This document shows positions 4,164 through 56,160 of a DNA stretch of 64,000 nt, piece by piece. Location of the stretch: assembly GCA_045656225.1 (NCBI GenBank), contig JAZOQU010000022.1, forward strand, positions 4,732 to 68,731. The letters are read 5' to 3'. The stretch's first letter is position 1; every line of letters begins with the position of its first letter. The translations under genes and the position numbers were made by a program. The stretch is from Kiritimatiellia bacterium (GTDB lineage Bacteria > Verrucomicrobiota > Kiritimatiellia > RFP12 > UBA1067). The notes under the pieces are model-generated. The model was not told where the DNA came from and did no database searches. It worked only from the letters and a program-made list of their open reading frames with translations.

Positions 4164-4219
4164 ATTAAAATGTTTTGCCTCATATTATACAACAATGTCG
4201 ACACCGAACGCAAACGTAA

Positions 4220-4981
4220 TCACCCCAAGCGAAAGTCACCGGTTGCAACACCGAAATCTAACGCTGCGCGGATGACGCTGAGAGCGAAAATCGCGGCGGT
4301 TTCGGCACGCAAAATCTGCGAACCGAACGAGACGGGACGCGCTATTTCAAGAAGCGCCGAAAGCTCTTCCGGCGTAAAATCGCCTTCGGGACCGATGTAG
4401 ACGGCGTAATCGGCGTTCGGACTTTTAGCCTTGGCCGACATTACCTCTTCTAAAAGATGCTTAGGCGGCGGAGTCATAAGAGCGCCTATGAAACAGTTCG
4501 TTTTCTTAACCAGTTCAAGCGACTCTTTAAAATCGGCTATATCGGCAATCTCAGGGACAAAAACGGCATCGGACTGGCGCGCAGCCTCCTCGACGATGCG
4601 CATCCATCGTTCGCGCTTAACCGGGCGCTCTGCCGCATCCACGCGAACGATCGTTCTCGCCGAAATTACAGGGACTATTCTGTCGACACCGAGTTCAGTC
4701 GCTTTTTCAAGAGTCCAATCCCATCGCGAACCCTTTGTAACGCAGGCGAAAAGCGTAACCGACGATGAAGAGGCCTTGGCATGCCGCGTCAAATCTCCCG
4801 CCGCCTCAAGCTCACGCAAGGAGGCGTTGTAGCGATAAACGCGCGTTAAGCCCTTTCCATCAAAAAGTTCTACCTCCTCACCGTTCTTTGGACGCAGAAC
4901 CTTCAGATGATTCGCCGCCTCGCGCGAGAGGACCGGCGAATCACACTTAAGGGTTTCACTGTCAGCAAGAAGCCTGTGCAT
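4220..4981 (-). CDS. rsmE: 16S rRNA (uracil1498-N3)-methyltransferase RsmE family
   Basis: 253 aa with an RsmE-like PUA plus SPOUT layout (LFACVTKGSRWDWTLEKATELGVDRIVPV). Confidence 0.7.
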   Translation of the reverse strand: MHRLLADSETLKCDSPVLSREAANHLKVLRPKNGEEVELFDGKGLTRVYRYNASLRELEAAGDLTRHAKASSSSVTLFACVTKGSRWDWTLEKATELGVDRIVPVISARTIVRVDAAERPVKRERWMRIVEEAARQSDAVFVPEIADIADFKESLELVKKTNCFIGALMTPPPKHLLEEVMSAKAKSPNADYAVYIGPEGDFTPEELSALLEIARPVSFGSQILRAETAAIFALSVIRAALDFGVATGDFRLG

Positions 4982-4989
4982 CGGAAATC

Positions 4990-6159: not shown

Positions 6160-6181
6160 ATTTATCTCTCCGTAATTGTTC

Positions 6182-7597: not shown

Positions 7598-9288
7598 TAC
7601 TGCTCCTCAGTAACGCGCATGATTTCCTTGACGCTCGTAACTCCGCGAAAAGCCTTAGACCAGCCGTCTTCACGAAGCGTCTTCATGCCTTTGGCCATGG
7701 AACGGTTGCGGATCTCCGTCGCGTTTTCACGACGGACGATCGCTCCCTCTATGTCTTCATCGACCTCGAGCACCTCGAATAAAGCGCGACGCCCCTTATA
7801 TCCCGTTCGCGAACAGGAATCACACCCTATGGGCTCGAAAACCGTATTCTTTTCGGGCGCGTAATCAAGAGTGTAATACTTCATGTCGAGAGGGACTTCC
7901 TTCATACACTTCGGGCAAAGACGGCGGCATAGACGCTGCCCCATGACGCCGGCAACGGCCGAAGCGATCAGAAACGGCTCAACACCCATGTCGATCAGAC
8001 GCGGGAAAGCGCCTGCCGCATCATTGGTATGCAATGTCGAAAACACCATGTGACCCGTAAGCGATGCGTTAATCGCGATTTCAGCGGTCTCGCGGTCACG
8101 GATTTCACCGACCATGATGATATCGGGATCCTGACGCAGAAACGCTCTCAGTGCGCGCGCGAACGTCATACCGATATCGGCCTGCATCTGAACCTGATTG
8201 ATACCGGCCATATGATATTCGATCGGGTCCTCGGCAGTCATGATTCTCACGTCGATCTTATTGACTTCGTGAAGGAATGAATAAAGCGATGTCGATTTAC
8301 CGGAACCGGTCGGTCCGGTGACCAGGAAAATCCCGTTCGGACGGCGGATAATCCTGTCGACTACGGCAAAATCACGATCATTGAATCCAAGGTCGGCCAT
8401 CTTGACGAAACTGCCGCTCTTGGCGAGAAGACGCAGAGAAATCGACTCGCCGTACGCGGCAGGCATGGTTGAAACGCGGATATCGATATCCTGTCCCGAA
8501 ATTCTGATGCCGATACGACCGTCCATCGGCAGACGCTTCTCGGCGATATCGAGATTGGCCATAACCTTGATACGCGAAATGATCGCCGCCTTCAACCTGT
8601 TCAACTGCGGCGGGACGTCTACCTTGTGAAGCATACCGTCGATTCTATAACGTATCCGAAGTTCGGTTTCCTGAGGTTCGATATGAATATCGGTCGCGCC
8701 TTGACGGTCGGCTTCAACGATGATCTGGTTCACAAAACGGACGATCGACGCTTCCTCGCCCATTTCATTGACGTCGATCTTGGTCATCGTGCTGAATTCA
8801 TCGTCGACGGAATAGCGGTCGTCGTCGATCATTTTTTCAATCGCATCGGCACCGACACCGTAATATTTTTTGACGGCTTTCTCAACCTCGTCCTTGGTAC
8901 ATAGCACCATTTTCATCGGACAGTTGGCGACAAGCCTCAATGAATCCGCCGGAGTCGTATCAAAAGGATCTGAAACGACAATCGTCATCGACTGGCCGTC
9001 GTAACGGTACGGTAAAACATTGTATTGATAAACGGCACTGGCAGGCACTTTAGTCAAAGCGTCCGCTGTAGGTTGATTATGCTCAAGATCGACCACCTCA
9101 AGACCAAGCGCGGAACCGAACGCCCCAAGAACATCGATTTCGCGGTGACCGCCGAACTTGACAGCGGCTTCGCAAAGTCCCATTTCAGGATTCTCAGTCC
9201 TGCCGGAAATAATGCGGGAAATCTGCTCATCGGAAAAAATCCCGGCAGATTTAAGAACAATGTTCGTTAGAGACAAACTTTCACTCAT
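7597..9288 (-). CDS. gspE: GspE/PilB-family secretion ATPase (type II secretion / type IV pilus assembly)
   Basis: N-terminal T2SE_Nter-like domain, Walker A GPTGSGKST, and a tetracysteine CxxC...CxxC motif. The stop overlaps the rpoN start by 1 bp. Confidence 0.8.
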   Translation of the reverse strand: MSESLSLTNIVLKSAGIFSDEQISRIISGRTENPEMGLCEAAVKFGGHREIDVLGAFGSALGLEVVDLEHNQPTADALTKVPASAVYQYNVLPYRYDGQSMTIVVSDPFDTTPADSLRLVANCPMKMVLCTKDEVEKAVKKYYGVGADAIEKMIDDDRYSVDDEFSTMTKIDVNEMGEEASIVRFVNQIIVEADRQGATDIHIEPQETELRIRYRIDGMLHKVDVPPQLNRLKAAIISRIKVMANLDIAEKRLPMDGRIGIRISGQDIDIRVSTMPAAYGESISLRLLAKSGSFVKMADLGFNDRDFAVVDRIIRRPNGIFLVTGPTGSGKSTSLYSFLHEVNKIDVRIMTAEDPIEYHMAGINQVQMQADIGMTFARALRAFLRQDPDIIMVGEIRDRETAEIAINASLTGHMVFSTLHTNDAAGAFPRLIDMGVEPFLIASAVAGVMGQRLCRRLCPKCMKEVPLDMKYYTLDYAPEKNTVFEPIGCDSCSRTGYKGRRALFEVLEVDEDIEGAIVRRENATEIRNRSMAKGMKTLREDGWSKAFRGVTSVKEIMRVTEEQ

Positions 9289-9337
9289 AGTTCTTTTATT
9301 TTACCAAAACATCCGTCTCGTCTCAATGGCAATTTAC

Positions 9338-11146
9338 CTATTCGTGAGGTGTTGCGACAACTTTGAAAAATTGGTCGGTGGCTTCGCGAGTATGCCATGA
9401 CTTTAGATCCTTTGAGCCCTTTATGCTGTAATTCCAAAGCGTCGTGTTTTCTGGAGAGGCGTTAATTACCGGCGCTCCGTTTTTATCCATTTTTATTACC
9501 GCCAAAAGATTCGTCTCGTTCGCATTGTCCGGATCGAGCCCCCGCGCATACGACTGAGAGACTGAGTATCCGTTGGCGGAAACATGATCGGCAAGAGCGT
9601 TATATGAACCGTAGAAATAATCGGTAAAGTAATTGCCGCCCTCCTGAATAGATAGATACCTATCAAGCCACGAAAACGGAACTATCGGCTCGCTGGTCGT
9701 AGTGTAATTATCCTTTTCTTTCTTAGTGTACACCTTGCAACAGAAATATATTCCGTCAACTGACAAATCTTCCCAATACCAGGTTCTATACGAAGAATTG
9801 ATATAGCTCTTACCTTCTTGATCAACAACCTTAGAAAGATAGCCTTCGTAATTCTCCATTACCGCTATCGGGTAATAATTTCCAGGCGTATTAATCTCAA
9901 CACATATCGCGAATGTCTCGCCAGCAAAAACGGAAATCTCCTTATCGAACGGAATTACCTCATAGCCGGCGTCGGTACAAGTCCCAGACTTCACTAAGGT
10001 TTTCGTTCCGCTAAGACTCGAATACCAAGATGAAATTGAAGCATTTGTAACAATATACGCCTTATAAGTCGTTCCCGGCGAAAGTGCGTAAAAACCGAAT
10101 GCATCGAGCGTTTCATCGGCTTTAGCCTTAAAGAAATTAGCTCCTGCGGCCATTGTACTTTGTTCATACCCGTAACTTTTAATATATCCGTAAGGATCAT
10201 GCTGATATACTCGAGCATAATCAGTACCTTTAGACAAGGATGTAAAAACCGCCGAACCGCTCGCCCCTAAAGATGTATCGTAGTAGGAAATATAGTTATA
10301 TCCGTTATCTGTTTTAGACGAATTCGCGCCCCAACTGTTCCGAATTATAAAAGCGCCGTTCCCCGGGGGAGTAATTTTAAAGTTCGACTTATCATAATTA
10401 TCATCCCACCCGACGATTGCAATGGCATGATTTAATACATATGCGCCTGAAGCAACATAATTCGCTCCATTGTAAAAATATGATGCGCCATTGCAATATT
10501 CATCTTTGTGAAAATATCCAGATGAAACTGGCCCGTATTTAAGAACAGCGCTTTTAATCGAATCAAGATCGGGTCTTAACGTAGTTTGAACCTTATCTAA
10601 ATATCCTAAGGCCGAAAGAAATACAATCTTGCGCGGAATGCGCACGCCGCGCTCGCGCCTGCTCTTACCGATATTAGGATACGGATCAAGCGCTTCGGAA
10701 ATTGGAGAATCTTCTCTTAAGAAAACGGCTGACGCCATTTCGTTATTTCCGCCGCCATCGTATCCGAAATCATAGCCGTTTAAGTTAGCTAAATTATTCT
10801 CCGATAAATCAGCATCGATACCCTCATCGCGCCTCATCTGATATTCGATTCCAGCCATCGCCGCGAATGTCCAGCACGTACCATACTTCCCCTGATTGCG
10901 TACGGGAGAAAGATAACTCGTGCCCGCCCCGTCAATATCGCGAAGATCGTACTTCGCTGGGAGCGATGTCGCAGCAGCTCTCATCATGCGCACATTCGAT
11001 GACGCGCTGCTCACCGTATTTGTAAAATGAGTCAACGCATTAGGGTGAGGTCTATAGCCAGCTCGGGGCGCATCAAAGGCAAAAGCCCCTCCTGCAAAGA
11101 GCATACTCACGAAAAAAGCGCTTTTAGCGGCATGATAAAATGTCAT
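9338..11146 (-). CDS. Secreted papain-like cysteine peptidase (C1 family) with a C-terminal extension
   Basis: Signal peptide, catalytic Cys motif NQGKYGTCWTFAA, His motif HAIAIVGWD, and Asn/Trp motif NSWG. Confidence 0.75.
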   Translation of the reverse strand: MTFYHAAKSAFFVSMLFAGGAFAFDAPRAGYRPHPNALTHFTNTVSSASSNVRMMRAAATSLPAKYDLRDIDGAGTSYLSPVRNQGKYGTCWTFAAMAGIEYQMRRDEGIDADLSENNLANLNGYDFGYDGGGNNEMASAVFLREDSPISEALDPYPNIGKSRRERGVRIPRKIVFLSALGYLDKVQTTLRPDLDSIKSAVLKYGPVSSGYFHKDEYCNGASYFYNGANYVASGAYVLNHAIAIVGWDDNYDKSNFKITPPGNGAFIIRNSWGANSSKTDNGYNYISYYDTSLGASGSAVFTSLSKGTDYARVYQHDPYGYIKSYGYEQSTMAAGANFFKAKADETLDAFGFYALSPGTTYKAYIVTNASISSWYSSLSGTKTLVKSGTCTDAGYEVIPFDKEISVFAGETFAICVEINTPGNYYPIAVMENYEGYLSKVVDQEGKSYINSSYRTWYWEDLSVDGIYFCCKVYTKKEKDNYTTTSEPIVPFSWLDRYLSIQEGGNYFTDYFYGSYNALADHVSANGYSVSQSYARGLDPDNANETNLLAVIKMDKNGAPVINASPENTTLWNYSIKGSKDLKSWHTREATDQFFKVVATPHE

Positions 11147-43457: not shown

Positions 43458-43560
43458 CCTTATAGGAAAAATAAACTATGTTATCATACCACAACACGCC
43501 TTATAAGGTCAATTAGAAGCCCATCTTTATAACTGTAGCCACTAAGAATCCAAAATCATA
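43458..43560. repeat. Direct repeat copy 1 (~100 bp) carrying two CCTTATAAGG-type palindromes
   Basis: Aligns with 44499..44600. The core ccttataaggNcaattagaaNcccatcNttataaNtgtagccactaagaatccaaaatcata is near-identical in both copies. Confidence 0.8.
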
Positions 43561-43628: not shown

Positions 43629-44108
43629 CTACAGCCTCTCAACTGCAGCGAAAACTTTTGCCGCGAGAGAGTCTGATAGCTGCCACATACCGACATTGCC
43701 GCGGCATGGGATGGGTTCGGGTAAGCGCCTTACGTTCGAGAGGTCCCACCAGAACCGATAGCCTTCATCCCATTTCTGCTTTGGCGTTGGCTTGGACTTA
43801 TAGACACCATCCTCCAACACTAGATTTAAGCCATCCCGCGCCTTGTAGTCACAAACTGCAATAATCTTACCAGGCCAATCCTTAACCTCGCGCCAAGAAG
43901 GAAGCTTCTCAAAATCCTCGTCCGAAAGCTCATGCGCAGCCATCGCCATAAACATCCCATATTGCTCCTTGCAAAACGACTTCGAACACGAAATCGCCAC
44001 CCGCCCTTCCCTCGGCTCTGGCATCATACTGCGATTCTCCGTCCGCTTGATTCCGTAAAGAATCATAATCGCATACGATCCAGTACAAGTAAAGGCGTTC
44101 ATAATCAA
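43629..44108 (-). CDS. ASCH-domain protein
   Basis: ASCH signature GxKxxExR present as GIKRTENR. About 70% amino-acid identity to the N-terminal half of the ASCH–RadC fusion at 49492..50319. Confidence 0.6.
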   Translation of the reverse strand: MIMNAFTCTGSYAIMILYGIKRTENRSMMPEPREGRVAISCSKSFCKEQYGMFMAMAAHELSDEDFEKLPSWREVKDWPGKIIAVCDYKARDGLNLVLEDGVYKSKPTPKQKWDEGYRFWWDLSNVRRLPEPIPCRGNVGMWQLSDSLAAKVFAAVERL

Positions 44109-44171: not shown

Positions 44172-44492
44172 TCAGCAAGCTGCATAAGATCCCTTCTTAG
44201 TTTTACGCCCCGCCCTCTGCCGTTTCTTTTCAATATCTCTTCTCTTAAACAGTGATTCATCTATCTCAGGCGGTGCAATAGCCATAAGCCAATCCACCTT
44301 ACCGAGAGTACGGCAGTATGCAAGAAGCGAAAGAGTTGAAGAATTTTCCCCTAACTCAAGATTACGAATAGCCTTAAGCGACACGCCGCTCCTATCAGCA
44401 GCAGTTTGCTGTGATATATTAGCGGCAAGTCGCTGCGCCCTCAAGTTTTCACCCAGAACCTTGAGCATTTCTTCTTTTGTTCGATATATCAT
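44172..44492 (-). CDS. XRE-family helix-turn-helix transcriptional regulator
   Basis: Classic HTH_XRE: LRAQRLAANISQQTAADRSGVSLKAIRNLELGE. Immediately upstream of the ASCH gene. Confidence 0.6.
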   Translation of the reverse strand: MIYRTKEEMLKVLGENLRAQRLAANISQQTAADRSGVSLKAIRNLELGENSSTLSLLAYCRTLGKVDWLMAIAPPEIDESLFKRRDIEKKRQRAGRKTKKGSYAAC

Positions 44493-44498
44493 AAATCA

Positions 44499-44600
44499 TC
44501 TTATAAGGAAAATAAACAGCAATATTATAGCATAAGATTCCTTATAAGGCAATTAGAAACCCATCCTTATAATTGTAGCCACTAAGAATCCAAAATCATA
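44499..44600. repeat. Direct repeat copy 2 (~100 bp) carrying two CCTTATAAGG-type palindromes
   Basis: See copy 1. It lies directly upstream of the HTH gene start. Confidence 0.8.
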
Positions 44601-44848
44601 CAACTGCCCTGCGAGAGTTTTAAATTTCAACAAATCAAGCGTCGTTGTCCATAGTTTGCTTTCCTATGGCTTTAGCATAGACGACCTGGATGGATAGACG
44701 CTGAAATACTGTCTTGATTGCACATTAGAATTTTCCGCACAAGATTCTCATTTTCTCAAACGAAAGAAGATAACTCAAGATATTTGCCAGAAACACGAGA
44801 TTTTTGATTGCCTGCGCGGAGCTCGGCCCTAAGAAAGCACAAGATAAA

Positions 44849-44881
44849 AGTTGCAAAGTTGGTCAGACCTACTTTGCAACT
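44849..44881. repeat. 33-bp near-perfect palindrome AGTTGCAAAGT-tGGTCaGACCt-ACTTTGCAACT
   Basis: Inverted repeat read directly, with one mismatch pair. Homologous to the 45-bp palindrome at 45147..45191. Confidence 0.8.
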
Positions 44882-45146
44882 ATTATTACATCTAAGACTC
44901 CCATCACAACTTTGCCAATAGTGCAGCTGTACAATCTTACGATACGCTGTCCTTCGTGGAGAAGGCGAACTTGCGAATTGCGATTTTCGCTTTTTTGTGT
45001 TACACTACTCACCGTCTTAGGGAATTGGCCTTGCGACTTGTCGTATTGAGTCATCAAGCCCTGAGACATTTCTTTTGTTTCGGTTACATCGCAACAAACC
45101 TGACCATTTTCATTGTTTCACATTTAATCCGAGAATACAAATACGC

Positions 45147-45191
45147 ACCAAAAGTTGCAAAGTAGGTCTGACCTACTTTGCAACTTTTGGT
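45147..45191. repeat. 45-bp perfect palindrome (accaaaagttgcaaagtaggtc-t-gacctactttgcaacttttggt)
   Basis: 22-bp arms around a single central T, followed by TTATTT. Candidate bidirectional terminator, protein-binding site or MITE-like end. Confidence 0.8.
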
Positions 45192-45526: not shown

Positions 45527-47533
45527 TCAATTGCCAAGCAGTCGCGAAAGCAGCGATCTTGACTTAAAGTCAATATCAAAGAAGTCTTTCGCCGCTGCCA
45601 AATCCATGATGACACTATCACGAGAACGTTTTGCACAAAGATTCTCCGGCAGCTCCTTCATCAATCGGTCAGCGTCCCAGTTTTCGCCAGCAACATATCG
45701 AAGTGTATTCATCCTCTTGTTTACTTCGAACGCATTGGGATTTGCTTGCCACGCCGTTTTAATTGTCTGTATGGCATATTTACCAGTGACCTTCTCACTG
45801 AAATAATCCTCCAAAGACAACTCCCGTATGAATGTAGGACAATTTGACAAATTTTCACTAAATATGGAACGCAAGATTACCGACGAAGCCTTAAGTATAT
45901 CTGGCGACTCTGATTCGGGGTTATCATCCTTGAGCGCCTCCATCAATTCAAGAACAGAATCAAGCATCCTACGAAGATACTCACGATAAAGCGCCGTTCC
46001 GATTTTTTGCTGAACAGATCGGACGATATTGCTTTTCATTACCTCCGTATTTGTAAGTCCAGCCTGAACGCGACAAATTACAGTTCGCCTTATAACTTCC
46101 TGTGCGACAGCCTTCACATCCTCATTTGCACTAATTACTACAGCGGGATAATTGAGAAGATGCTCAAGCGAACCGAAATCATCATTCTTAATCGTCTCAA
46201 TTGCGTGTTGATTAAACCTTGTATTAGTCAAATCGTCAACAATGATGGGCGCCCCTTGCACAGTACGTCGAAGCCCATCAATTGTCGTACGAGTAAACTC
46301 AGGCGCACTTATTTTCACCTTTTGTCCAATCATCATCTTAAGTAAGGTTTCCAGAAATGACGTCTTTCCAGCCTTAGACTGTCCATAGATGAGACCAAAC
46401 ACAGGATACGGAAGGGTTTTCTGATCATAACGCAAAGCTGTATCACGCATTACAGCCATAAAAGGCGAACAGAAGAACCAGTTCGCGAACTCGTAGTACC
46501 TATATTGCATCCCTTCGCAGTCACCATGGAATCTCTCAAAACCATTCATGTAACGAATAAAAAGTTCAACGTCAGATTTAATTTCATCTTGAGTAGGATG
46601 CAAATCAAGCGTAACACCATTAAGCAGCACACAACTCTTTTCAACATCAACGGCGAGCTGCGGATATTCACTCCTCAGTTCCTTCTCATGTTCGCTTTCC
46701 TTCACTTGCTGCCGTTTTACCTTCTGTATGACATCAGGCGTTACAAGAACTTTTCCTTTCCGCTTTTCTTCCTTTGAAATAGATATTGACGGCGCAATGC
46801 GTTTTGCCAAATTGCGAGTATCAAGAATAAAATTAACGTCCTCTTCCACATCCTTGACTGGCTCAATATAAATCGCCTTCTCAACCCTCGCAGTTTCAGC
46901 GATAGGTAATGCGTCTACATTCTCCGTGCTATCCGATATTTCAATAGCCTTTTTCGTTATAGTATCTACACTATCCTGTTTCAAATCCTCATAAGCCTCT
47001 TCAAACCGTTCGTATGCCTCCTGAGAATCAATATAACATATAATCTCTCTCTGTCGCCCGCCAAAAGCATTGAATGACATGTTTGCTGAACCGAATACAA
47101 CCCGAGCCCGTCCATCTTCCGCCTTGAGCAAATACAACTTTTCATGCGATAACCTTCTGCGCGCGACAAAAAGCCGCACATCACCACGCTCAACACGCGC
47201 AATCATCTTCTCCTTTGATGTAGAATCCGTCTTACGAATACGCTCCATTAACTTCGCCTGATAAGCCATTATCTCTTGAAGAGTATACGACATAACCTCT
47301 TCACATCCGAAAATAATTTCAGCGTCTTTGAACAAGTCAAGCAGTTGATATACAAAACCTATCCCCGATGAAAACGTAATTGCTTTGATTGAATTGAAAC
47401 CTGAAAAAAGTTCTTGCCACGTAATACTTTCTGAATAAACATAGTCCATCTTAACTACATCTATCTTGCTCATTCCACCATTTGACATCCCGTCAGATGA
47501 TGAAAATAAATCATCGCCAAAGTCTTTTGCCAT
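45527..47533 (-). CDS. Fused PLD-family nuclease and SF3-like P-loop NTPase (668 aa)
   Basis: N-terminal single HKD-type motif HEKLYLLKAEDGRARVVFGSANMS (HxK...D...GSxN). C-terminal Walker A GQSKAGKTS, Walker B IIVDDL, and a downstream VVISANE that resembles SF3-helicase motif C. Confidence 0.55.
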   Translation of the reverse strand: MAKDFGDDLFSSSDGMSNGGMSKIDVVKMDYVYSESITWQELFSGFNSIKAITFSSGIGFVYQLLDLFKDAEIIFGCEEVMSYTLQEIMAYQAKLMERIRKTDSTSKEKMIARVERGDVRLFVARRRLSHEKLYLLKAEDGRARVVFGSANMSFNAFGGRQREIICYIDSQEAYERFEEAYEDLKQDSVDTITKKAIEISDSTENVDALPIAETARVEKAIYIEPVKDVEEDVNFILDTRNLAKRIAPSISISKEEKRKGKVLVTPDVIQKVKRQQVKESEHEKELRSEYPQLAVDVEKSCVLLNGVTLDLHPTQDEIKSDVELFIRYMNGFERFHGDCEGMQYRYYEFANWFFCSPFMAVMRDTALRYDQKTLPYPVFGLIYGQSKAGKTSFLETLLKMMIGQKVKISAPEFTRTTIDGLRRTVQGAPIIVDDLTNTRFNQHAIETIKNDDFGSLEHLLNYPAVVISANEDVKAVAQEVIRRTVICRVQAGLTNTEVMKSNIVRSVQQKIGTALYREYLRRMLDSVLELMEALKDDNPESESPDILKASSVILRSIFSENLSNCPTFIRELSLEDYFSEKVTGKYAIQTIKTAWQANPNAFEVNKRMNTLRYVAGENWDADRLMKELPENLCAKRSRDSVIMDLAAAKDFFDIDFKSRSLLSRLLGN

Positions 47534-47662
47534 ACATCCTCCTTAAATTAAACTTTTGATGAAAATGTTGTAATCTCCATTTCTATTAGCTCAAACCGAG
47601 AAAGTAGGTCAGACATAACTTCTTAATTAAAAGTGTTAACATAAGCATCTTTACCTAATATC

Positions 47663-49465
47663 TCACAAAGCCTCATAATATTTCCTGATTTTTTCAGCCA
47701 TCATTTTACGACGCTTCGGCAAGAAGCACGTCTCAAAATCCTCAACACCCATCGTTATCACATCCTCTGGAACGCAATTCATTTCCATTGTCTGCTTCAC
47801 CATATCAATATCCGTCATTGATCCTATGACCGGACTCTTCGTTTCGCATTGCTTGAAAACACATCCGAAATACTCAGCGGGCGACTTTTTGCCGATTGCG
47901 ATGTTTATCGGAGTTTCTAAATAGGTGAAATTCGCCACCTGATTATACTGCGTAAACCGAAGCCCATTGTTCTTGAGGAATTCCTTCGGGAAAATATGGT
48001 GTACATCTCCATTATCAATAAGATTAGCAACCGCTGTTACCGAAAACAGGGACTGATCTCTAAAAAATACCTGTGCCGCCTTAAATACATTTAACGCAGG
48101 GCATTTAGCCGCCGACGTTTCCAGCTGTTGCACAATATTTACCGTCCAGAATGATTCCCCTAATTCTGCCGCTTCAATATCTGCAAGACACTTACGCACG
48201 CCTTTCTCTGCGATTGCGCGTAAATCTCGATCCATCTGAGATTCTGGAGACCCAGAATAACGCCCTGTCAATGTACTTAAGACGAACCACCTTCTGACAA
48301 ACGATTTAATTTCTGTAGCACCAACTTCTTTTGTCTCATTCAAGAGAAGATGCAATGTATAAGCGAAATCAAGCGACATTTGTGAGCGTAAGAGCTTAGA
48401 GGAAATAAACCCAGCCGACTCAATAGCCTCCACAAACTGCTTAAAATGATATTCCTTCACGAAGTTGTGAACACCAGACTCTAACTTGGCAAAGCTCTCC
48501 TGCATAATTTCGTCTTTAAAAGTACGATCCTTGAAATCACGTCCTGAAAGCAAACTGACAAGATCCTTCAATCTGCCGCGTCCGAACTTATGCATCATTG
48601 CCACTCGGAGCATATCACTATACTCAGGATCATAAATATCCTTGCGGTCATCCTTGAGCCATTTCATTTCGCCAGCATACGGCGTCGCCATAAACTCTAC
48701 ATCTTTCTCGACACTTGAATAGAACGCAGGATCAACCGCCAAATGACAAAAATAATCAATCGCCTTGCGCAAATCATTGCCTCCATAACGATTATCTGCC
48801 GCAATCTTCGACATTGCAAAATCAGCCTCATTAAGAATCTTACCTTGCGAATTTATGCGTACGAAAATCTCGGTAACCTCATCAATTCCAATATCCTGAC
48901 TAAGCTGAATTACGCCAATCTGACGCTGTTCAATGCGTAGCAACTCTCGAATCTTGGCATTTATCGCCTTGCGCTCCACGCCTAGGTTATCAGCAACATA
49001 CTGTTCTATAAATTCATAATCATCAAAATCCTTCTTAAAGAGAACGGAGATATCTGCAATCCAGCGCTTATCCTTTATATGAACCGGTGTCTGCACCTCA
49101 AAAGAAGGCTCTTCATCCGCCGCCCACGGATTAAATGCTATCTTGATCTGCTTAGATGAATAATCATCCCGCAAAACAGATCGCCCATCAATCGCCGTCA
49201 TAATAGCTGTGACGCGCTGCTGACCATCAATAAGAATCTTCTTCCCAAGCGACAACGATCCGTCCTTAAGCTTAACATCAGGATTTTGCCAGACAATAAT
49301 ATACCCTGCCGGATATCCACGATAAAGCGAATCTATCAAATCGCGGACCTGCGCACCGCTCCAAACAAACGGGCGCTGAATCTCCGGAATAGCAATCTCT
49401 CCATTCCTTACAAACCCAAGAATGTTCTCAATTGTCTTCTGCTCTATCGAATATTTCTCTGCCAT
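47663..49465 (-). CDS. GmrSD-family type IV restriction endonuclease (DUF262 plus DUF1524)
   Basis: N-terminal DUF262/ParB-like motif IPEIQRPFVWSGAQVRDLIDSLYRGYP. C-terminal DUF1524 His-Me finger motif DNGDVHHIFPKEF. 600 aa. Confidence 0.7.
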   Translation of the reverse strand: MAEKYSIEQKTIENILGFVRNGEIAIPEIQRPFVWSGAQVRDLIDSLYRGYPAGYIIVWQNPDVKLKDGSLSLGKKILIDGQQRVTAIMTAIDGRSVLRDDYSSKQIKIAFNPWAADEEPSFEVQTPVHIKDKRWIADISVLFKKDFDDYEFIEQYVADNLGVERKAINAKIRELLRIEQRQIGVIQLSQDIGIDEVTEIFVRINSQGKILNEADFAMSKIAADNRYGGNDLRKAIDYFCHLAVDPAFYSSVEKDVEFMATPYAGEMKWLKDDRKDIYDPEYSDMLRVAMMHKFGRGRLKDLVSLLSGRDFKDRTFKDEIMQESFAKLESGVHNFVKEYHFKQFVEAIESAGFISSKLLRSQMSLDFAYTLHLLLNETKEVGATEIKSFVRRWFVLSTLTGRYSGSPESQMDRDLRAIAEKGVRKCLADIEAAELGESFWTVNIVQQLETSAAKCPALNVFKAAQVFFRDQSLFSVTAVANLIDNGDVHHIFPKEFLKNNGLRFTQYNQVANFTYLETPINIAIGKKSPAEYFGCVFKQCETKSPVIGSMTDIDMVKQTMEMNCVPEDVITMGVEDFETCFLPKRRKMMAEKIRKYYEAL

Positions 49466-49491
49466 ATAAATTCTCCTTATTGCTTACGGTT

Positions 49492-50319
49492 TTAAAGTTT
49501 GTCCATCACTGACACATACCCTCGCCCTTCATCGCAATCAGGCGAACCAAGGATGAGGTGGTCAAGAAACTTGATACCAAGCAGTTGGGCGGCGGATTGC
49601 AATGCTTTAGTAATCTGCAAATCAGCCCTGCTCGGCGTAGGATTGCCGCTTGGATGATTGTGAGCGACGATGATTGCATCTGCCTGCGCCTTGAACGCCG
49701 CACGAAAGACTTCTCCCAAGTCCACGGTTGTTGTGCCTTGCGTGTGTCCGAGAGATACAAGCACAGGCAAACCAATCGGGCGACACTCCGCGTCAATCGG
49801 CAACACAAAGAAACCTTCCTGCTCACCCGCAATCGGAATTGCCACACGAAACAGCGGATAGGCGTCATCTGCCGTCTCAATGCGCGAGTTCAAAGCACAT
49901 TCAGCCGCAGACACTTTTGCCGCAAGATCGGACGGCATCTGCCACATGCCGACGTTGCCGCGGCAGGGAATCGGTTCGGGTAAACGCACAACGTTCAACA
50001 AATCCCACCAATACGGATAACCCTCGCCCCAAGATTCGGCTTTCTGCCTTTGCCGCGCCTTGTAGTCGCACACGCCAACAATCTTGCCCGGCCAGTTCTT
50101 CACCTCGCGCCACGCGGGCAGTTTCTCGAAATCCTCTGGCGACAGGCTCACCGACGCCCACGCGATGAACTGCCCGTACTCTTCTTTGCAAAACGACTTC
50201 GAACACGAAATCGCCGCCCGCCCCTCGCACGGCTCCGGCCACGCGCTGCGGTTCTCCGTGCGCTTGATTCCGTAAAGAATCAATATCGCGTATGCTCCAG
50301 TGCATGTAAAGGCGTTCAT
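49492..50319 (-). CDS. ASCH domain fused to a RadC-like JAB/MPN domain
   Basis: N-terminal ASCH (GIKRTENR) paralogous to 43629..44108. C-terminal JAMM-type motif VAHNHPSGNPTPSRADLQIT typical of RadC. Confidence 0.7.
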   Translation of the reverse strand: MNAFTCTGAYAILILYGIKRTENRSAWPEPCEGRAAISCSKSFCKEEYGQFIAWASVSLSPEDFEKLPAWREVKNWPGKIVGVCDYKARQRQKAESWGEGYPYWWDLLNVVRLPEPIPCRGNVGMWQMPSDLAAKVSAAECALNSRIETADDAYPLFRVAIPIAGEQEGFFVLPIDAECRPIGLPVLVSLGHTQGTTTVDLGEVFRAAFKAQADAIIVAHNHPSGNPTPSRADLQITKALQSAAQLLGIKFLDHLILGSPDCDEGRGYVSVMDKL

Positions 50320-50606
50320 AACTTACTTTGTGAGACTGCCGCGAATAATGGCAAATCAGTTTCTGAATCAACAAGTTCTATATTCTCGTTGTTCTCTCCA
50401 TAGAACTCAAATTTATGCTCGCGGCGAGAAATGCAAACGCCGCGTTTTTTCAATTCAACTGCAAACCACCGCCGTAATGACTGCGGCGTTGCTGCGAATT
50501 CATCAATAGAATCGAAATCTTCCCAACCGACATTTCCGTCAGCATCAGAAAATGGCTTGATTTTTAAAAGTTCATAGGTCATATTGACAGGACTTTTCAT
50601 TGACAT
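50316..50606 (-). CDS. Hypothetical protein (96 aa), first gene of the ASCH–JAB/GmrSD operon
   Basis: ATGA overlap with the downstream ASCH–RadC gene. No recognisable motif. Confidence 0.4.
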   Translation of the reverse strand: MSMKSPVNMTYELLKIKPFSDADGNVGWEDFDSIDEFAATPQSLRRWFAVELKKRGVCISRREHKFEFYGENNENIELVDSETDLPLFAAVSQSKL

Positions 50607-50780: not shown

Positions 50781-51779
50781 TTATCCCTTGAAAACATATT
50801 GACGATGATATTCCATGTATTTCTCTCTTTCATCATCTAATGGAAGTGCTTGAATATACGAACCCGTCTTGATATTACATTTAGCTTGGTTTGTGGGAGA
50901 TATCCAATTGGAGACTAACATACACTTCTTTTCATCAAAGGAAATAAACCCCTGATCAAACAAACGGTCATAAAGCGGAGATAATATGAATCCGTTTTTA
51001 GGATCAAATGCTTCATCGTCTTCTGATACAGAATATGGTTTTATATGACTCGCAACCAATAGTCTTTCATCAGAAATCTTGGTTATTGGACAATAGGGAC
51101 ACTCTTCCAAAAGTTTATCTCGATATCTCTTTTGGGCAACCGCATCACGATTACTTGTTTTTACAGATGTTTGTATCTCTTTCTCCTGTTTAGCGGCATT
51201 GTTATCACTAACAGAAGCTGTACCTTTCCCATAAGTAAACACTTGTGGAGTTAGCCCTCTTTGTTTTAATGCATCGAAATCCACGAAAAGTTTCCAGTAA
51301 TAACGAATCATCCCTTTGGGATCAGATAATCTCATAATAGAGATATAACTTATCAATGGAAGAGAAAGGGTTCTAAAAAGCTTGTATGCAAGATCATTGG
51401 AATTGATATATCCACGAGGTCCCGCAATTTGTGTTTGGACATGTACTTTAAATTCAATAATATCAGGCATCTTCAACAACGACCGAACACGCTCTTCCCA
51501 CAATTCGGGCATTTTGGATTTGCCTGCATAATTTTGAGTGGGGAACTTGTATTCCTTCTCGGCTGTCTGCATGTATTTCAATAAATCACTTTTCAAGAAA
51601 AAGCAATCTATAGTAGACGCGCCAAGAACGAACGAATGTAAATCAGATTTTGATCCGAAGTAGAATTTAGCCTCTCCGTTCCCTGTACCAAGTTTATTAG
51701 GTCCAAGAACATTGCAATCTGGAACTGTCAGAATGCGTGAGACATCTTGAAATTTATAAGTCTTTCCATCAATTCTCAT
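50781..51779 (-). CDS. HNH_2-type (His-Me finger) endonuclease, putative restriction enzyme partner of the adjacent methyltransferase
   Basis: C-terminal CPYCPITKISDERLLVASHIKPYS...NGFILSPLYDRLFDQGFISF, an ASHIKP...N...H-type HNH_2 core. 4-bp overlap with the methyltransferase stop. Confidence 0.6.
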   Translation of the reverse strand: MRIDGKTYKFQDVSRILTVPDCNVLGPNKLGTGNGEAKFYFGSKSDLHSFVLGASTIDCFFLKSDLLKYMQTAEKEYKFPTQNYAGKSKMPELWEERVRSLLKMPDIIEFKVHVQTQIAGPRGYINSNDLAYKLFRTLSLPLISYISIMRLSDPKGMIRYYWKLFVDFDALKQRGLTPQVFTYGKGTASVSDNNAAKQEKEIQTSVKTSNRDAVAQKRYRDKLLEECPYCPITKISDERLLVASHIKPYSVSEDDEAFDPKNGFILSPLYDRLFDQGFISFDEKKCMLVSNWISPTNQAKCNIKTGSYIQALPLDDEREKYMEYHRQYVFKG

Positions 51780-53848
51780 TTCTCGACCTCCTCCTTAAAC
51801 AATTCGGGAATAACATTTTTGATAGAGTCAAGTATCGCAACAAGCACATCAACGACAATAGCATTTCCTGCTTGCTGATACATTGGAGTGTCCGGAACAA
51901 CAATTTTAAAAGTATCGCTAAATCCCATCAGCCTGAGACATTCTCTCGGCGCTAATTTTCTAATTCTACCTTCCCTAGTTATGTAATTATCAACACCAGC
52001 TCTGTGCATTTTATGCATAGAGGTTAACAAAGGTCTTGCTATCTCCAAGTCAGTTTTGGGTCGAGAATAAAAGGTTTTAGTTCCTGTAGAAAGAACGTAC
52101 TTTCTCACCTTTTCAGAGAGAAAATATTTTTCAAGTTCAGGCATTCCAAAGCTCTTGGCAGTCTCTTCATCAACGAAAACAAAATCTCCGTGCCAATTAA
52201 ATTGCTGATTCTTCTTTTGACATAGCTGAACCTTGCCGTCAACTTGTGTATACCGCTTTGTAAGATTTCCCTCATCAAGAACAAATCGAACACCTTTTTC
52301 TGGAAGATAGTATTTACCTGGAACGACATCAAGTAAATAATCTTGCATCGTCGTTTTTAGTTTCTTCGGTGCTGGAAATTTGAAGCTTCCACCGATTTTT
52401 AAATCCTTACGAAACCCAACAACAAAAACACGTTCCCTATTTTGTGGTATTCCATAATCCTTAGAATTTAACACTTGATAATGCCAGTCATAACCTAAAT
52501 CTGTAAAAATCTTTGAAATAGTAGCCCATGTTTTTCCACCATCATTACTCAACAGTGCACGAACATTTTCATATATGAAACATTTTGGCTTAATTTCTGA
52601 TACTAAACGAGCATACTCATAAAACAATGTGCCACGAGTATCAGATAATCCCATCTGCTTGCCTACAAGACTAAACGATTGGCATGGGCTTCCTCCAACA
52701 AAGAGATCGACTTCATTTTTGTATGGCGCCCCCTCAAGAAATGTAACATTCCAATGAAATCTATCATCTGTAACCGGGTAATTCGCCATATATGATTGGC
52801 GAACCTTATTTCGAGGAAGCATTGGTCGATAAAGCATATCGACTAACTTCTTTCTTTCTTGCCAATCCTTTTCCGATTCCCAACCAACTCTAAATTTGTA
52901 AAATCCAATTGCTTCATGAAGCATTTGAACGCGGTCTTTTAACTCACGCTCAGGTCGCTTACTCATAGCTGGCGCACCGTCTAACAATGCCTGAATATTA
53001 TTGCGCTGATTTACAATCAACTCATAGGCCTGTTGAAGGCTTTCGCTGTTTGGCTTTAACTCGTCAATGCGCTCGCATAATTCCTTAAACGCCGCCACAC
53101 ATTCAGACCATTCTTTAGCACCACAAACAAAAGGAGTTTGGTCGCCATTATCACAAGCAAAAACAATTTCATGAGCGACATGAGTACGCAACAATGCTTG
53201 TTCAATAGCTCCTATCCCGCTAAAAACTGTCGCTAGTCTTAATTTTTCGCCTTTGGCTGATAACGCTTGTGCAACAACAGGCATTAAGCCATCGAAGAAA
53301 TCCAACTGTACTGGATTAAACGTTGTAGCTGAATGCCATTTCTTGAAATATGGTTTTAGTTTGTCAAAGATGTACGGCATTGACTTTCCGCCAGTTTTGG
53401 GGTAGGGCTTAGCGTAAAATGCCGCGTCAATCTTTACATTAGGACAACGCTGTGACGAAACAAAAACGTCTGCCGCGGAATCAGAAAGTGTCGCGGCAAA
53501 AGAAACCTTCTCTCCAAGTTCATATAGCGCGTATGCTGAACCATGCGCTTTATCTGCCGCGGCAACTTTATAACCATTTTCTTTGAGCCACGCGGCATCT
53601 ACAACTTCACGAAACTTTGCTTCGTAAGCTAAAGGAGTAAATCCATCAGCGATTAGAACGATTCGTGATATATTTTCATGAAACGCAACTTTCCCACAAG
53701 GCGGCAATGGAAGATTATAGAACTTCTTCTCCTTAATCCATTCCGCATTTTCCTTGCGAAAAGTCCCAACAAGAACAGCTGTATTAGCTTTATTTTCCCT
53801 TTTCTTTCCCATCTTCAATTCACTTTCTTTATCGCTCATATCATCCAC
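51776..53848 (-). CDS. DNA (cytosine-5)-methyltransferase with a ~200-aa N-terminal extension and a ~100-aa insertion between motifs I and IV
   Basis: Motif I ATVFSGIGA, IV GGSPCQSFS, VI ENVRALL, VIII QNRERVF, IX RKLAPRECLRLMGF, X GNAIVV. The likely true start is MSDKESELK at 53839, with AGGTGG 5 nt upstream. Confidence 0.85.
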   Translation of the reverse strand: MDDMSDKESELKMGKKRENKANTAVLVGTFRKENAEWIKEKKFYNLPLPPCGKVAFHENISRIVLIADGFTPLAYEAKFREVVDAAWLKENGYKVAAADKAHGSAYALYELGEKVSFAATLSDSAADVFVSSQRCPNVKIDAAFYAKPYPKTGGKSMPYIFDKLKPYFKKWHSATTFNPVQLDFFDGLMPVVAQALSAKGEKLRLATVFSGIGAIEQALLRTHVAHEIVFACDNGDQTPFVCGAKEWSECVAAFKELCERIDELKPNSESLQQAYELIVNQRNNIQALLDGAPAMSKRPERELKDRVQMLHEAIGFYKFRVGWESEKDWQERKKLVDMLYRPMLPRNKVRQSYMANYPVTDDRFHWNVTFLEGAPYKNEVDLFVGGSPCQSFSLVGKQMGLSDTRGTLFYEYARLVSEIKPKCFIYENVRALLSNDGGKTWATISKIFTDLGYDWHYQVLNSKDYGIPQNRERVFVVGFRKDLKIGGSFKFPAPKKLKTTMQDYLLDVVPGKYYLPEKGVRFVLDEGNLTKRYTQVDGKVQLCQKKNQQFNWHGDFVFVDEETAKSFGMPELEKYFLSEKVRKYVLSTGTKTFYSRPKTDLEIARPLLTSMHKMHRAGVDNYITREGRIRKLAPRECLRLMGFSDTFKIVVPDTPMYQQAGNAIVVDVLVAILDSIKNVIPELFKEEVEK
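53802..53841. repeat. 40-bp perfect direct repeat (copy 1) covering the methyltransferase start codon
   Basis: tttctttcccatcttcaattcactttctttatcgctcata is identical to 54965..55004 and encodes MSDKESELKMGKK on the minus strand. Confidence 0.85.
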
Positions 53849-53866: not shown

Positions 53867-55003
53867 TCAGTCGCATTTCCCTTTCTCAGAAAGACGATTT
53901 CGTGCAGCCTCTATCGCCAAACGGAACTTCGCCTCCAGCACCTTCTTCGGCGGCAATTCCGTCATATATGACGCGACCCTTATATTGCTACGCCCCAACT
54001 CCAACAATTCAACATGTTCCTCGTTCTTCCCAGCGCACAAAATTAATCCGATTGGCTTGTTTTCACCTTTGCACATCTCATTCTTCTCAAGCCATTTCAA
54101 ATACAACTCCATCTGACCTTTGTACTCAGCTTTAAAAGTATCTATTTTGAGGTCGATAGCCACAAGCCTGCGAAGACGCCTGTGGAAAAACAATAAATCA
54201 AGATAATAATCTTCGTTGTCCACGCTGATACGCTTCTGTTCTGCAAGAAACGCCATATCACCACCAAGCTCAAGTATAGCGTTCCTCATGTCTGCAACAA
54301 GAGCCTTCTCAAGTTCCTTCTCCGAAAAATTGCCGCGCAGCCCAAGAAAATCTAAAACATACGGATCTCGAAAGGCAAGGTCGGCAGACATCTTGCCTTC
54401 TTCACGCAGTGCTTCCAAATCCTTTTTTATAACTGCCTTAGGCTTTTTTGCTATTGCTGTACGTTCATACATCATCGAAGCGATGCGTCCTTGCAATGTA
54501 CGCGTCCCCCAATGTTCCGTTGCGCACATTTCAAGGTAGAACTGCCTCTTAAGAGAATCTGAAATGTAAGAGAGCGTCTTGATGTGCGTCCACGACAATT
54601 GTCTCCGCAATGCGGAGAGAATCTCATCCTCGCCGAAAGTCTCCGCGGCGCGGAGACAATGCCTCAACGTCTTCTCATCCCATCCACCCCCATGAAAAAG
54701 CATAAGACGAGATGCCAACCCCTTGACAACCTTCTTACCATACTCAGCGCGACCGCAACCGAGAATTTCTCTATTAATGCAGTTGCCAACATTCCAATTC
54801 AATTTGGTCAACTCAGTATTAACTCCAACAGCCACGCGCTCCCTTGCCGCTGTTATCAATGATGATATTTCGTTGAAGAGCCTGGTAATCGCATCATCTA
54901 CAAAATTGACACCTGATGATGATTGTCCTAAAACATCATTTTTCTCTTTAACTTCAGAACTCTTTTTCTTTCCCATCTTCAATTCACTTTCTTTATCGCT
55001 CAT
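53867..55003 (-). CDS. YhcG/DUF1016-family PDDEXK nuclease-like protein
   Basis: YhcG-like N-terminal motifs (LSWTHIKTL) and a C-terminal PDDEXK-like core (VAIDLKIDTFKAEYKGQMELYLKWL). Start set to MSDKESELK (55003); the track's 55048 start crosses the upstream HTH gene. Confidence 0.6.
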   Translation of the reverse strand: MSDKESELKMGKKKSSEVKEKNDVLGQSSSGVNFVDDAITRLFNEISSLITAARERVAVGVNTELTKLNWNVGNCINREILGCGRAEYGKKVVKGLASRLMLFHGGGWDEKTLRHCLRAAETFGEDEILSALRRQLSWTHIKTLSYISDSLKRQFYLEMCATEHWGTRTLQGRIASMMYERTAIAKKPKAVIKKDLEALREEGKMSADLAFRDPYVLDFLGLRGNFSEKELEKALVADMRNAILELGGDMAFLAEQKRISVDNEDYYLDLLFFHRRLRRLVAIDLKIDTFKAEYKGQMELYLKWLEKNEMCKGENKPIGLILCAGKNEEHVELLELGRSNIRVASYMTELPPKKVLEAKFRLAIEAARNRLSEKGKCD

Positions 55004-55004
55004 A
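54965..55004. repeat. 40-bp perfect direct repeat (copy 2) covering the YhcG-like start codon
   Basis: See copy 1. Confidence 0.85.
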
Positions 55005-55758: not shown

Positions 55759-56160
55759 CTACCCGAACAACTTCTCAACCAGCTCTCTATCCGCAGGACA
55801 AAAATCAATATCGCGCATTTGATCTACCGTTACCCAGCGAATCTCCTGATGTTCCAATGCTTGCGGCACAGCCCCATTTTTCGGATTACATTCGATCAAT
55901 GTAAGACGAATTGTCTTTTCGGGATATTCATGCACAACAGAATCGATAATTCGCTCGTTTTCAATCTCTAGCGCCAGCTCTTCAAGACACTCTCGCTTAA
56001 GCGCCTTTTCAGAAGTTTCGCCAGGCTCGATCTTCCCACCCATAAACTCCCATAATCCACCCTGCGACTTATGCGCCGGCCGCTGCCCGATAAGATACTT
56101 ATCACCATCTTTGATGATGGCTCCAACAACCTCTATCACATTATCATTATACATTTTCAA
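55759..56160 (-). CDS. NUDIX hydrolase (MutT-like)
   Basis: Nudix box GGKIEPGETSEKALKRECLEELAL. Confidence 0.8.
   Translation of the reverse strand: MKMYNDNVIEVVGAIIKDGDKYLIGQRPAHKSQGGLWEFMGGKIEPGETSEKALKRECLEELALEIENERIIDSVVHEYPEKTIRLTLIECNPKNGAVPQALEHQEIRWVTVDQMRDIDFCPADRELVEKLFG

Follow-up and report, generated by a model that had tools for sequence, protein, structure and literature searches.

A PLD nuclease fused to a Cch/Rep-type AAA+ ATPase in a Kiritimatiellia bacterium: a predicted single-gene defence nuclease next to a GmrSD-family restriction enzyme

Introduction

The DNA analysed here is a stretch of 64,000 nucleotides from a Kiritimatiellia bacterium (contig JAZOQU010000022.1, positions 4,732 to 68,731; hereafter the window), which carries two neighbouring genes for proteins of 668 and 600 amino acids (aa). 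The 668-aa protein joins a nuclease domain of the phospholipase D (PLD) type to a C-terminal AAA+ ATPase and is referred to as the PLD-AAA+ protein, while the 600-aa protein belongs to the GmrSD family. Judging from genomic context and homology we conclude, with moderate confidence, that the PLD-AAA+ protein is a self-contained, single-gene, ATP-driven defence nuclease, which stands beside an independent type IV restriction enzyme. A preliminary description of the window, made from the letters of the DNA alone, had instead put the two proteins forward as a candidate two-component nuclease module, whose members might act separately or together. Its account of two co-directional open reading frames (ORFs) separated by 129 bp agrees with the ORF list, and the motifs it quoted (HEKLYLLKAEDGRARVVFGSANMS, GQSKAGKTS, IIVDDL and ISAN) are all found in the translation, where the catalytic residues are near-invariant among 101 homologues.

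Results

A PLD nuclease domain with a single catalytic motif

Conservation was assessed in an alignment of these 101 homologues, which share 23-90% identity with the 668-aa query. The HKD motif HEKLYLLKAEDGRARVVFGSANMS occupies aa 130-153 of the translation and is the only copy of the catalytic motif in the protein. Each residue of its HxK...GSxN signature (H130, K132, S149, N151) is retained in 100 of the 101 homologues, and E163 of the same domain in 99. The classical aspartate five positions after the lysine lacks conservation, residue 137 being K, S or E, and D140 occurs in 54/101. According to Pfam, residues 117-198 match the PLD family RE_NgoFVII (PF09565) with 36.8 bits against a cut-off of 23.8, while the PLDc_2 score of 26.1 falls slightly short of its cut-off of 27. 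In line with this, the domain (approximately aa 38-200) adopts a Nuc-like fold in the structure model, for which Foldseek returned R.NgoAVII (1.1e-5) and BfiI (1.1e-3). The R.NgoAVII match (4rct) spans only about 170 residues, i.e. the PLD domain. Enzymes with one HKD motif per chain, such as Nuc, BfiI and SauUSI, need two chains for each active site, and PLD chemistry permits a covalent intermediate.

An ATPase related to the ring helicases Cch and SaPIbov1 Rep

In the C-terminal part, Walker A (GQSKAGKTS) lies at aa 384-392, Walker B (IIVDDL) at aa 430-435 and ISAN at aa 467-470. The Walker A lysine K390, N470 (sensor 1/motif C) and R483, the arginine finger ahead of strand 5, are each found in 101/101 homologues, and position 434 of Walker B is likewise D or E in all of them. 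K449, located in the loop between motifs B and C before strand 4, is retained in 99/101 and is possibly a B' motif. Since K390, D433/D434, N470 and R483 are invariant or nearly so, the compact layout of Walker A, Walker B, motif C and arginine finger that is typical of superfamily 3 (SF3) is present. The conserved catalytic residues in the PLD and the ATPase domain imply that both activities are kept by selection, and on the evidence of the alignment both catalytic centres are under strong purifying selection across the family.

The AlphaFold structure model of the 668-aa protein, built with 101 diverse homologues, reached a predicted local distance difference test score (pLDDT) of 91.2 and a predicted template modelling score (pTM) of 0.81. 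Foldseek placed Cch (5dgk_A) as best match of the C-terminal two thirds (1.1e-5 over 424 columns). The closest solved relatives of the ATPase are the self-loading ring helicases Cch, from SCCmec, and SaPIbov1 Rep, followed by SF3 helicases, namely JCV/SV40 large T (1e-4 to 6e-4) and poxvirus D5, B19V NS1 and AAV Rep40 (2e-3 to 2e-2); generic AAA+ proteins rank below Cch and the SF3 helicases. An earlier model of lower quality gave the same top matches. On the sequence level, the single 668-aa sequence retrieved nothing useful from the PDB, and Cch was reached only with the 101-sequence profile. There it ranks top with an E-value of 0.0026 from Walker A to Walker B (GQSKAGKTS...GAPIIVDDL aligned with GQSSTGKST...GIPIVFDEL), and a second, weak stretch colinear with Cch falls into the C-terminal region of the protein.

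Profile, structure prediction and fold search hence bear out the fusion of a PLD nuclease with a P-loop NTPase that the preliminary description had put forward. Its term SF3-like for the NTPase is near but inexact: the motif layout and the SF3 relatives by fold agree with it, whereas no SF3 family of Pfam (Pox_D5, D5_N, VirE, Parvo_NS1, PPV_E1_C) matches the C-terminal 384 aa at E ≤ 10, and the best matches, Cch and SaPIbov1 Rep, class as SF6/MCM-like. The same 384 aa yield generic P-loop matches only (FtsK_SpoIIIE 0.005, AAA_22, others). A newer Pfam family with a non-functional name, PF27394 ('Aq_aa27'), is precomputed on the C-terminal part of every homologue.

Cch and Rep of the SaPIbov1 type are assigned to the MCM-like SF6 group of AAA+ helicases; they form hexamers, load themselves and unwind DNA 3'->5', whereas other SaPI Reps and Cch2 are placed in SF3. 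All of them consist of an N-terminal tier, an ATPase tier and a C-terminal tier with a winged helix (PMC9371898). By fold and weak sequence similarity, the ATPase of the 668-aa protein is a member or close sister of the Cch/Rep2 helicase group, and its C-terminal domain is an AAA+ module like those of the Cch/Rep ring helicases. By analogy with Cch, the region from aa 514 to 655 possibly represents a winged-helix-like DNA-binding tier. The invariant arginine finger R483 points to an oligomeric ATPase, probably a ring as in Cch/Rep.

The PLD-AAA+ family is large, with signs of horizontal spread

A word-indexed search returned 1,846 relatives of the 668-aa protein, the top 120 of which are almost all full length (658-683 aa). 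An exhaustive profile search against 1.84 billion representatives yielded at least 1,250 clusters (50% identity) at E ≤ 1e-3 and 399 at E ≤ 1e-30, whose representatives are overwhelmingly 650-690 aa long and matched end to end. For the locus survey we used the best 80 of 147 one-genome-per-species stretches that encode a relative (designated by L numbers where they must be told apart), which together with the window gives 81 loci. These best 80 loci, with protein identities of 55-90%, stem from Kiritimatiellia, many Clostridia (Oscillospiraceae, Lachnospiraceae, Christensenellales), Lentisphaerae, Spirochaetota and Desulfosporosinus; such identities across these taxa indicate horizontal spread of the gene. 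Close relatives reside in metagenome-assembled genomes of Kiritimatiellia from rumen and gut. Distant full-length relatives (22-28% identity) are encoded on plasmids of Acetobacter, Komagataeibacter, Arcobacter and Athalassotoga, where they are annotated as PLD-family, 'restriction endonuclease PLD domain-containing' or 'tyrosyl-DNA phosphodiesterase' proteins, and haloarchaeal plasmids gave partial matches only (about 28-65% of the query). The exact 668-aa protein of the window has no record in the assembly index. In one further protein, P0226 (743 aa), an SPFH/Band-7 domain replaces the PLD domain and the C-terminal Aq_aa27 AAA+ module is kept, which suggests that the Aq_aa27 motor is combined with different N-terminal effectors.

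NCBIfam and PHROGs contain no informative match to the 668-aa protein, and PADLOC-DB 2.0 (Azaca, Mokosh, MADS, Druantia and others) contains no significant full-length match. The marginal PADLOC matches are ZacB (1.1e-4, 92 aa of the PLD region), which is far under family level, and mad8 (3.3e-4, ATPase region). A literature search found no paper describing the PLD-AAA+ fusion or PF27394, an absence that is not proof. The earlier statement that the fusion, placed beside a GmrSD-type enzyme, is unlike described systems can be kept for the fusion itself with respect to PADLOC and the literature, but must be qualified in that the C-terminal part already has a Pfam entry. The fusion is a widespread, uncharacterised one whose C-terminal domain is filed in Pfam as Aq_aa27.

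The kinship of the motor raises the question of whether the protein could instead replicate or mobilise a mobile element, its helicase unwinding an origin that the PLD domain nicks, analogous to HUH-SF3 Rep proteins. A phosphohistidine intermediate covalently bound to DNA, as allowed by PLD chemistry, would suit such a role. Some of the plasmid copies have flanking resolvases, the identity of 55-65% between phyla speaks for horizontal transfer, and the best ATPase relatives are initiator-helicases of SCCmec and SaPI elements (PMC9371898). We nevertheless regard a replication or mobilisation protein as unlikely. No flanking element, integrase, primase or origin-like partner is conserved among the loci, whose neighbours differ in nearly every case, the Arcobacter plasmid encodes its own Rep and DnaB, and neither an integrase nor a tRNA was found in the island of the window that holds the gene. 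Moreover, the family is essentially absent from phages and viral contigs (0 of 50,697 phage genomes, 1 of 2.9 million viral contigs), and by profile the PLD domain is nearest to restriction nucleases (RE_NgoFVII). The sole viral-contig relative (L094; IMGVR_UViG_3300029573_000197, 8001-9902) shows 49% identity.

The neighbouring gene encodes a GmrSD/BrxU-type enzyme

The 600-aa protein matches GmrSD_N/DUF262 (PF03235) with 7.4e-30 and the PADLOC candidate HEC-05 with 2.6e-29, and the segment D80-G-Q-Q-R84 is invariant in 21 sequences. The family profile aligns with BrxU (7p9k) colinearly along the whole chain (E 7.6e-17). The preliminary description had called this protein a DUF262+DUF1524 enzyme. 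The first half of that assignment stands, whereas DUF1524 (GmrSD_C, PF07510) gave no Pfam match at E ≤ 10 on the protein and none is precomputed on 120 homologues. The residues D487-x-H489-H490...N508...N512...N521 are invariant and colinear with the C-terminal nuclease region of BrxU ('DHIYPK...N...N'), a stretch that is not significant by itself. Taken together, the DUF262 domain, the BrxU match and the invariant D/H/N motif identify a type IV enzyme of the GmrSD/BrxU type with a putative, divergent C-terminal His-Me nuclease. Enzymes of the GmrSD family, such as BrxU, act as single proteins.

The GmrSD gene occupies a variable slot upstream of the PLD-AAA+ gene

Were the two proteins to form a module encoded in one operon, the GmrSD protein might e.g. 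sense modifications or make the first cut, leaving processive degradation to the PLD-AAA+ protein. The arrangement in the window fits this idea, as the genes are co-directional and the 129-bp spacer contains a strong ribosome-binding site (RBS; AAGGAGG, 47538-47544) and, according to a promoter/terminator scan, no terminator-like site. Also in its favour, three divergent GmrSD lineages are found directly upstream of PLD-AAA+ genes in the same orientation and at distances of 82-135 bp (window, L083, L084-86, L053), and in L083 a 96%-identical PLD gene has swapped the GmrSD type at the same slot.

The conservation of the neighbourhood, by which the preliminary description had proposed to check the module, speaks against it. 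ORFs were called and clustered in the 80 loci and the window, 61 loci having at least 2.5 kb of upstream sequence. Within ±10 kb, only 3/81 loci (window, L013, L053) contain a homologue of the window's GmrSD gene, and as immediate neighbour, counting proteins of at least 120 aa, GmrSD_N of Pfam occurs in 1/71 cases upstream and in 0/67 downstream. In L001 and L002, GmrSD is missing and a RadC-like gene abuts the PLD gene, the plasmid copies of the PLD-AAA+ gene stand alone without a recognisable partner, and an SLFN-g3 helicase is found upstream more often than GmrSD. Conversely, relatives of the window's GmrSD protein with 70-72% identity occur in islands that lack the PLD-AAA+ gene, where they follow HNH_2 (L087) or RadC (L089/L090). 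Since each of the two genes thus occurs without the other, the claim of a two-component module falls; together with the established single-protein action of GmrSD-family enzymes, this makes the module quite improbable. The GmrSD gene is an independent type IV restriction enzyme in a variable slot and not a fixed partner of the PLD-AAA+ gene. In the window, both genes may be co-transcribed with each product working on its own.

How the slot has been filled can be followed in the closest relatives, where the gene conserved next to PLD-AAA+ on its upstream side is the RadC-like one. L001 is the closest genome relative (82% nucleotide identity across the PLD gene); there, 36 bp separate the 3' end of the RadC-like gene from the PLD gene. 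The corresponding segment of the window, 1,963 bp with the whole GmrSD gene, is absent from L001 and L002. The RBS context GGAGAATT-N-TATGGCA stands ahead of the PLD gene in L001 and ahead of the GmrSD gene in the window, a shift that fits the insertion of a cassette at the start of the downstream gene. In the metagenomic contig L083, which has a PLD gene with 96% DNA identity, the slot holds another GmrSD gene (571 aa, 24% protein identity to that of the window), which follows a 101-nt remnant of the RadC 3' end. RadC and PLD-AAA+ as a conserved pair were rejected, as the pairing is limited to the window, L001 and L002.

Immediate neighbours of the PLD-AAA+ gene

The 71 upstream neighbours comprise 69 Pfam families, led by the SLFN-g3/DUF2075 helicase (7), NUDIX (5) and AraC-type HTH (4) proteins; SauUSI-like proteins with PLD, helicase and DUF3427 domains account for 4-5/71. 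Among the 67 downstream neighbours 85 Pfam families are found, including helicases (5), HsdM (3), NERD (2), Csm6 (2) and Fic (2). In the PADLOC census of the same neighbours PDC-S41 (7), the SauUSI-like mREase_IV (6 upstream, 5 downstream) and PDC-S07 (5) are counted, alongside BrxL and type I methyltransferases. What surrounds the PLD-AAA+ gene varies greatly and includes many defence genes, those of the stand-alone kind being its commonest neighbours.

The commonest upstream neighbour, the SLFN-g3/DUF2075 nuclease-helicase (PDC-S41; 7/71), is found in L006, L009, L011, L030, L055, L057 and L091, and in L091 its gene overlaps the start of the PLD gene by 4 bp (2962-5004 and 5001-7016). As an obligate partner it was rejected, since it is present in only about 10% of the loci. 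In several Oscillospiraceae loci (L027, L056, L060, L066 and others), the PLD-AAA+ gene is preceded at 17-22 bp by the end of a NUDIX gene and followed at 4-14 bp by the start of a gene for a MazG-like pyrophosphohydrolase, with SauUSI-like PLD-helicase-DUF3427 genes flanking the group. Either a clade-specific operon or a single inherited island could explain this arrangement. A related NUDIX gene is located in the window 8 kb upstream (55759-56160).

The island in the window

The PLD-AAA+ and GmrSD genes lie in an island of low GC content at about 43-57 kb (GC approximately 0.41-0.44, compared to 0.50-0.55 in the flanks), which is adjoined by pyruvate formate-lyase genes. The island contains two ASCH-like genes, an HTH gene, the ASCH-RadC/JAB gene, a C5 methyltransferase together with an HNH_2 endonuclease, a YhcG/PDC-S02 nuclease and the NUDIX gene. 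The features of the locus are compiled in Table 1.

Table 1. Features of the PLD-AAA+ locus; positions refer to the window unless a locus is named
Feature	Position (nt)	Strand	Details and basis
PLD-AAA+ gene (668 aa, ATG start)	45527..47533	-	ORF list; Pfam RE_NgoFVII, plus PF27394 Aq_aa27 on homologues
PLD (Nuc/BfiI/NgoAVII-type) endonuclease domain, ~aa 38-200	46934..47422	-	single HKD motif, aa 130-151 = nt 47081-47146
Linker and helical N-tier ahead of the ATPase, ~aa 240-370	46424..46816	-	model secondary structure; within the 424-column Foldseek alignment to Cch 5dgk_A
AAA+ ATPase core, ~aa 375-510	46004..46411	-	Walker A G384-T391 = nt 46361-46384
Residues of the AAA+ core			Walker B D433/D434, loop lysine K449, sensor-1 N470, arginine finger R483
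C-terminal helical region and small alpha/beta domain, ~aa 514-655	45569..45994	-	model secondary structure
Terminator-like hairpin, ~130 nt past the PLD-AAA+ stop codon	45365..45396	-	promoter/terminator scan
Spacer between GmrSD and PLD-AAA+ gene, 129 bp	47534..47662	-	sequence
GmrSD/BrxU-family type IV restriction enzyme gene (600 aa, ATG start)	47663..49465	-	GmrSD_N, HEC-05, BrxU profile match
ASCH-like and RadC/JAB gene (275 aa)	49492..50319	-	RadC 1.6e-27; synteny with L001 and L002
Variable slot between RadC-like and PLD-AAA+ gene, window	47536-49498		GmrSD, 600 aa
Variable slot, L001	455-492		empty
Variable slot, L002	2145-2259		empty
Variable slot, L083	3322-5253		GmrSD, 571 aa

Several repeats were observed in the island. 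Downstream of the PLD-AAA+ gene there are two copies of a palindromic element of 39 nt (AAAAGTTGCAAAGTnGGTCnGACCTACTTTGCAAC...; 44846-44884 and 45150-45188), of which 14 nt (GTCTGACCTACTTT) are found again at 47601-47614, in the spacer that follows the GmrSD gene. Two paralogous ASCH-like domains, one in the stand-alone gene at 43629-44108 and one fused to the RadC/JAB domain (49492-50319), share 78% nucleotide identity over 269 nt (43836-44104 and 50053-50321). Neither ASCH-like part matches a Pfam family, and PHROG 3193, whose function is unassigned, matches both. Direct repeats of 51 nt with 94% identity (43510-43560 and 44550-44600) flank the stand-alone ASCH-like gene (159 aa) and an HTH gene (106 aa, 44172-44492), so that the pair looks as if it were an inserted cassette.

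A perfect direct repeat of 41 nt (53800-53840 and 54964-55004) spans the 5' ends of the C5 methyltransferase and YhcG/PDC-S02 nuclease genes, which is why the two proteins share their first peptide, MSDKESELKMGKK. The repeat may be a recombination scar or a common translation-initiation cassette. In the C5 methyltransferase (690 aa, 51776-53848) the methylase domain begins only at about residue 350, and the N-terminal 350 residues have no family match. Its partner, the HNH_2 endonuclease (50781-51779), shows a weak likeness to phosphorothioate-dependent restriction enzymes (NF045808, 1.2e-6).

Discussion

Comparison with known systems

SauUSI, an ATP-requiring restriction enzyme of type IV and of the PLD kind from S. 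aureus (PDB 7clg), is a PLD nuclease powered by ATP, as is predicted for the 668-aa protein. Its motor, however, belongs to SF2 (RecA-type, with monomeric tandem lobes) and its sensor is DUF3427, whereas the 668-aa protein carries an AAA+ module of the ring-helicase type with an arginine finger and lacks DUF3427. NgoAVII/CglI and BfiI share the PLD Pfam family of the 668-aa protein, RE_NgoFVII, and an NTPase supplies the ATP dependence. Compared to NgoAVII/CglI, which have a separate ATPase subunit, a B3-like domain on the R subunit and a cognate methyltransferase, the 668-aa family has a fused NTPase, no detected B3 domain and no conserved methyltransferase nearby.

That the protein is nonetheless a fused type II restriction enzyme of this kind, with R and N functions joined and paired with the methyltransferase of the island, is highly improbable and was rejected: RE_NgoFVII is the best Pfam match, R.NgoAVII ranks among the top Foldseek matches and the C5 methyltransferase lies about 4 kb upstream, but the latter is directly paired with its own HNH_2 endonuclease, no methyltransferase is conserved beside the homologues (an HsdM-type enzyme in 3/67, and no other in the leading families), the R.NgoAVII fold match leaves the B3-like DNA-binding domain undetected, and the ATPase is an AAA+ protein of the Cch type, no structure of the NgoAVII N subunit having turned up.

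In the fold of the ATPase and its flanking tiers the 668-aa protein is like Cch and SaPIbov1 Rep (PDB 5dgk, 8tch), at an identity of only about 11%. Those proteins are initiator-helicases of mobile elements that lack a nuclease domain and are encoded in conserved replication operons (PMC9371898). In contrast, the 668-aa protein has a PLD nuclease at its N-terminus and a defence-island context, and no conserved replication partner was found in the 80 loci. Azaca (ZacB), Mokosh and END follow the common logic of a PLD effector that is coupled or fused to an NTPase or sensor, which is an RNA helicase in Mokosh and an inactive EndoIII in END; none has a Cch-like AAA+ module, and the 668-aa protein for its part carries no EndoIII-like domain. 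By analogy, the 668-aa protein would function most like SauUSI and the NgoAVII/CglI enzymes without being a member of either group or of Azaca, Mokosh or END, its ring-helicase AAA+ motor setting it apart.

A proposed single-gene, ATP-driven defence nuclease

There is precedent for the proposed function. PLD nuclease N-terminal domains combined with varied C-terminal domains constitute single-gene defences (END nucleases, PMC12191111), and Azaca and Mokosh are known PLD nuclease-NTPase systems (the 'nuclease-NTPase' class, bioRxiv 2025.07.10.664194), a class to which the PLD-AAA+ protein would also belong. In the mechanism that we propose for the PLD-AAA+ protein, the invariant R483 would act in trans, implying that ATP is hydrolysed where subunits meet and hence that the protein assembles on DNA as a ring or another kind of oligomer. 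This self-loading assembly would track along invading DNA, translocating or unwinding it at the expense of ATP (3'->5' as in Cch/Rep) and so bringing the PLD domains together. Two chains would pair their HKD motifs to build one active site, as they do in Nuc, BfiI and SauUSI, and the pair would cut the DNA of invading phages or plasmids in a metal-free reaction via a phosphohistidine intermediate. As trigger, modified DNA or an intermediate of replication or entry would be more likely than a site that lacks methylation. Hereby, the lack of a conserved methyltransferase neighbour argues against a classical type II/III logic, dependence on modification is favoured because SauUSI-like and GmrSD genes are frequent nearby, and recognition of a replication or entry intermediate is favoured because of the ancestry of the motor.

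A number of points weigh against a defence nuclease of this kind. We found no experiments on any family member in the literature, and the defence role derives from genomic context only, in which about two thirds of the immediate neighbours cannot be recognised as defence genes. That the solved proteins nearest to the ATPase initiate the replication of mobile elements makes a replication role conceivable. It is not evident how self and non-self would be discriminated, and an unregulated ATP-dependent nuclease would be toxic. The structure model is that of a monomer, the oligomer as well as the helicase and nuclease activities being predicted. Finally, the three GmrSD lineages, 24-30% identical to each other, stand directly upstream in 4-5 of about 75 independent contexts (window, L083, L084-86/L013, L053), a raw count; a loose functional affinity or a common insertion hot spot may be behind this recurrence.

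A bolder version of the defence reading, which we put forward tentatively and hold to be rather doubtful, is that the family represents a domesticated initiator-helicase of mobile-element replication, of the Cch/SaPI-Rep type, with a PLD nuclease added as its weapon. Such a protein would load itself in ring form onto invading replicons, be it at their origins, forks or entering ends, and cut them to pieces as it translocates. If true, it would be the first defence nuclease with a hexameric, replicative-type AAA+ motor rather than an SF1/SF2 motor, and replication itself would be sensed rather than sequence or modification. As a weaker addition, the interchangeable upstream GmrSD cassette might widen or tune the target range of the PLD-AAA+ protein.

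Apart from the function of the PLD-AAA+ protein, the slot upstream of its gene shows how a defence island is rebuilt by cassette swap, as it is empty or filled with one or another GmrSD type in front of near-identical PLD genes. If the prediction of a single-gene defence nuclease holds, the family would be a very widespread immune nuclease that is not called by PADLOC-DB 2.0 and that is common in Clostridia and Kiritimatiellia of gut and rumen and on plasmids of acetic-acid bacteria. It would give a function to the Pfam family Aq_aa27, and it would add a ring-forming AAA+ motor from mobile-element replication to the theme of PLD nuclease-NTPase defence represented by SauUSI, NgoAVII, Mokosh and Azaca.

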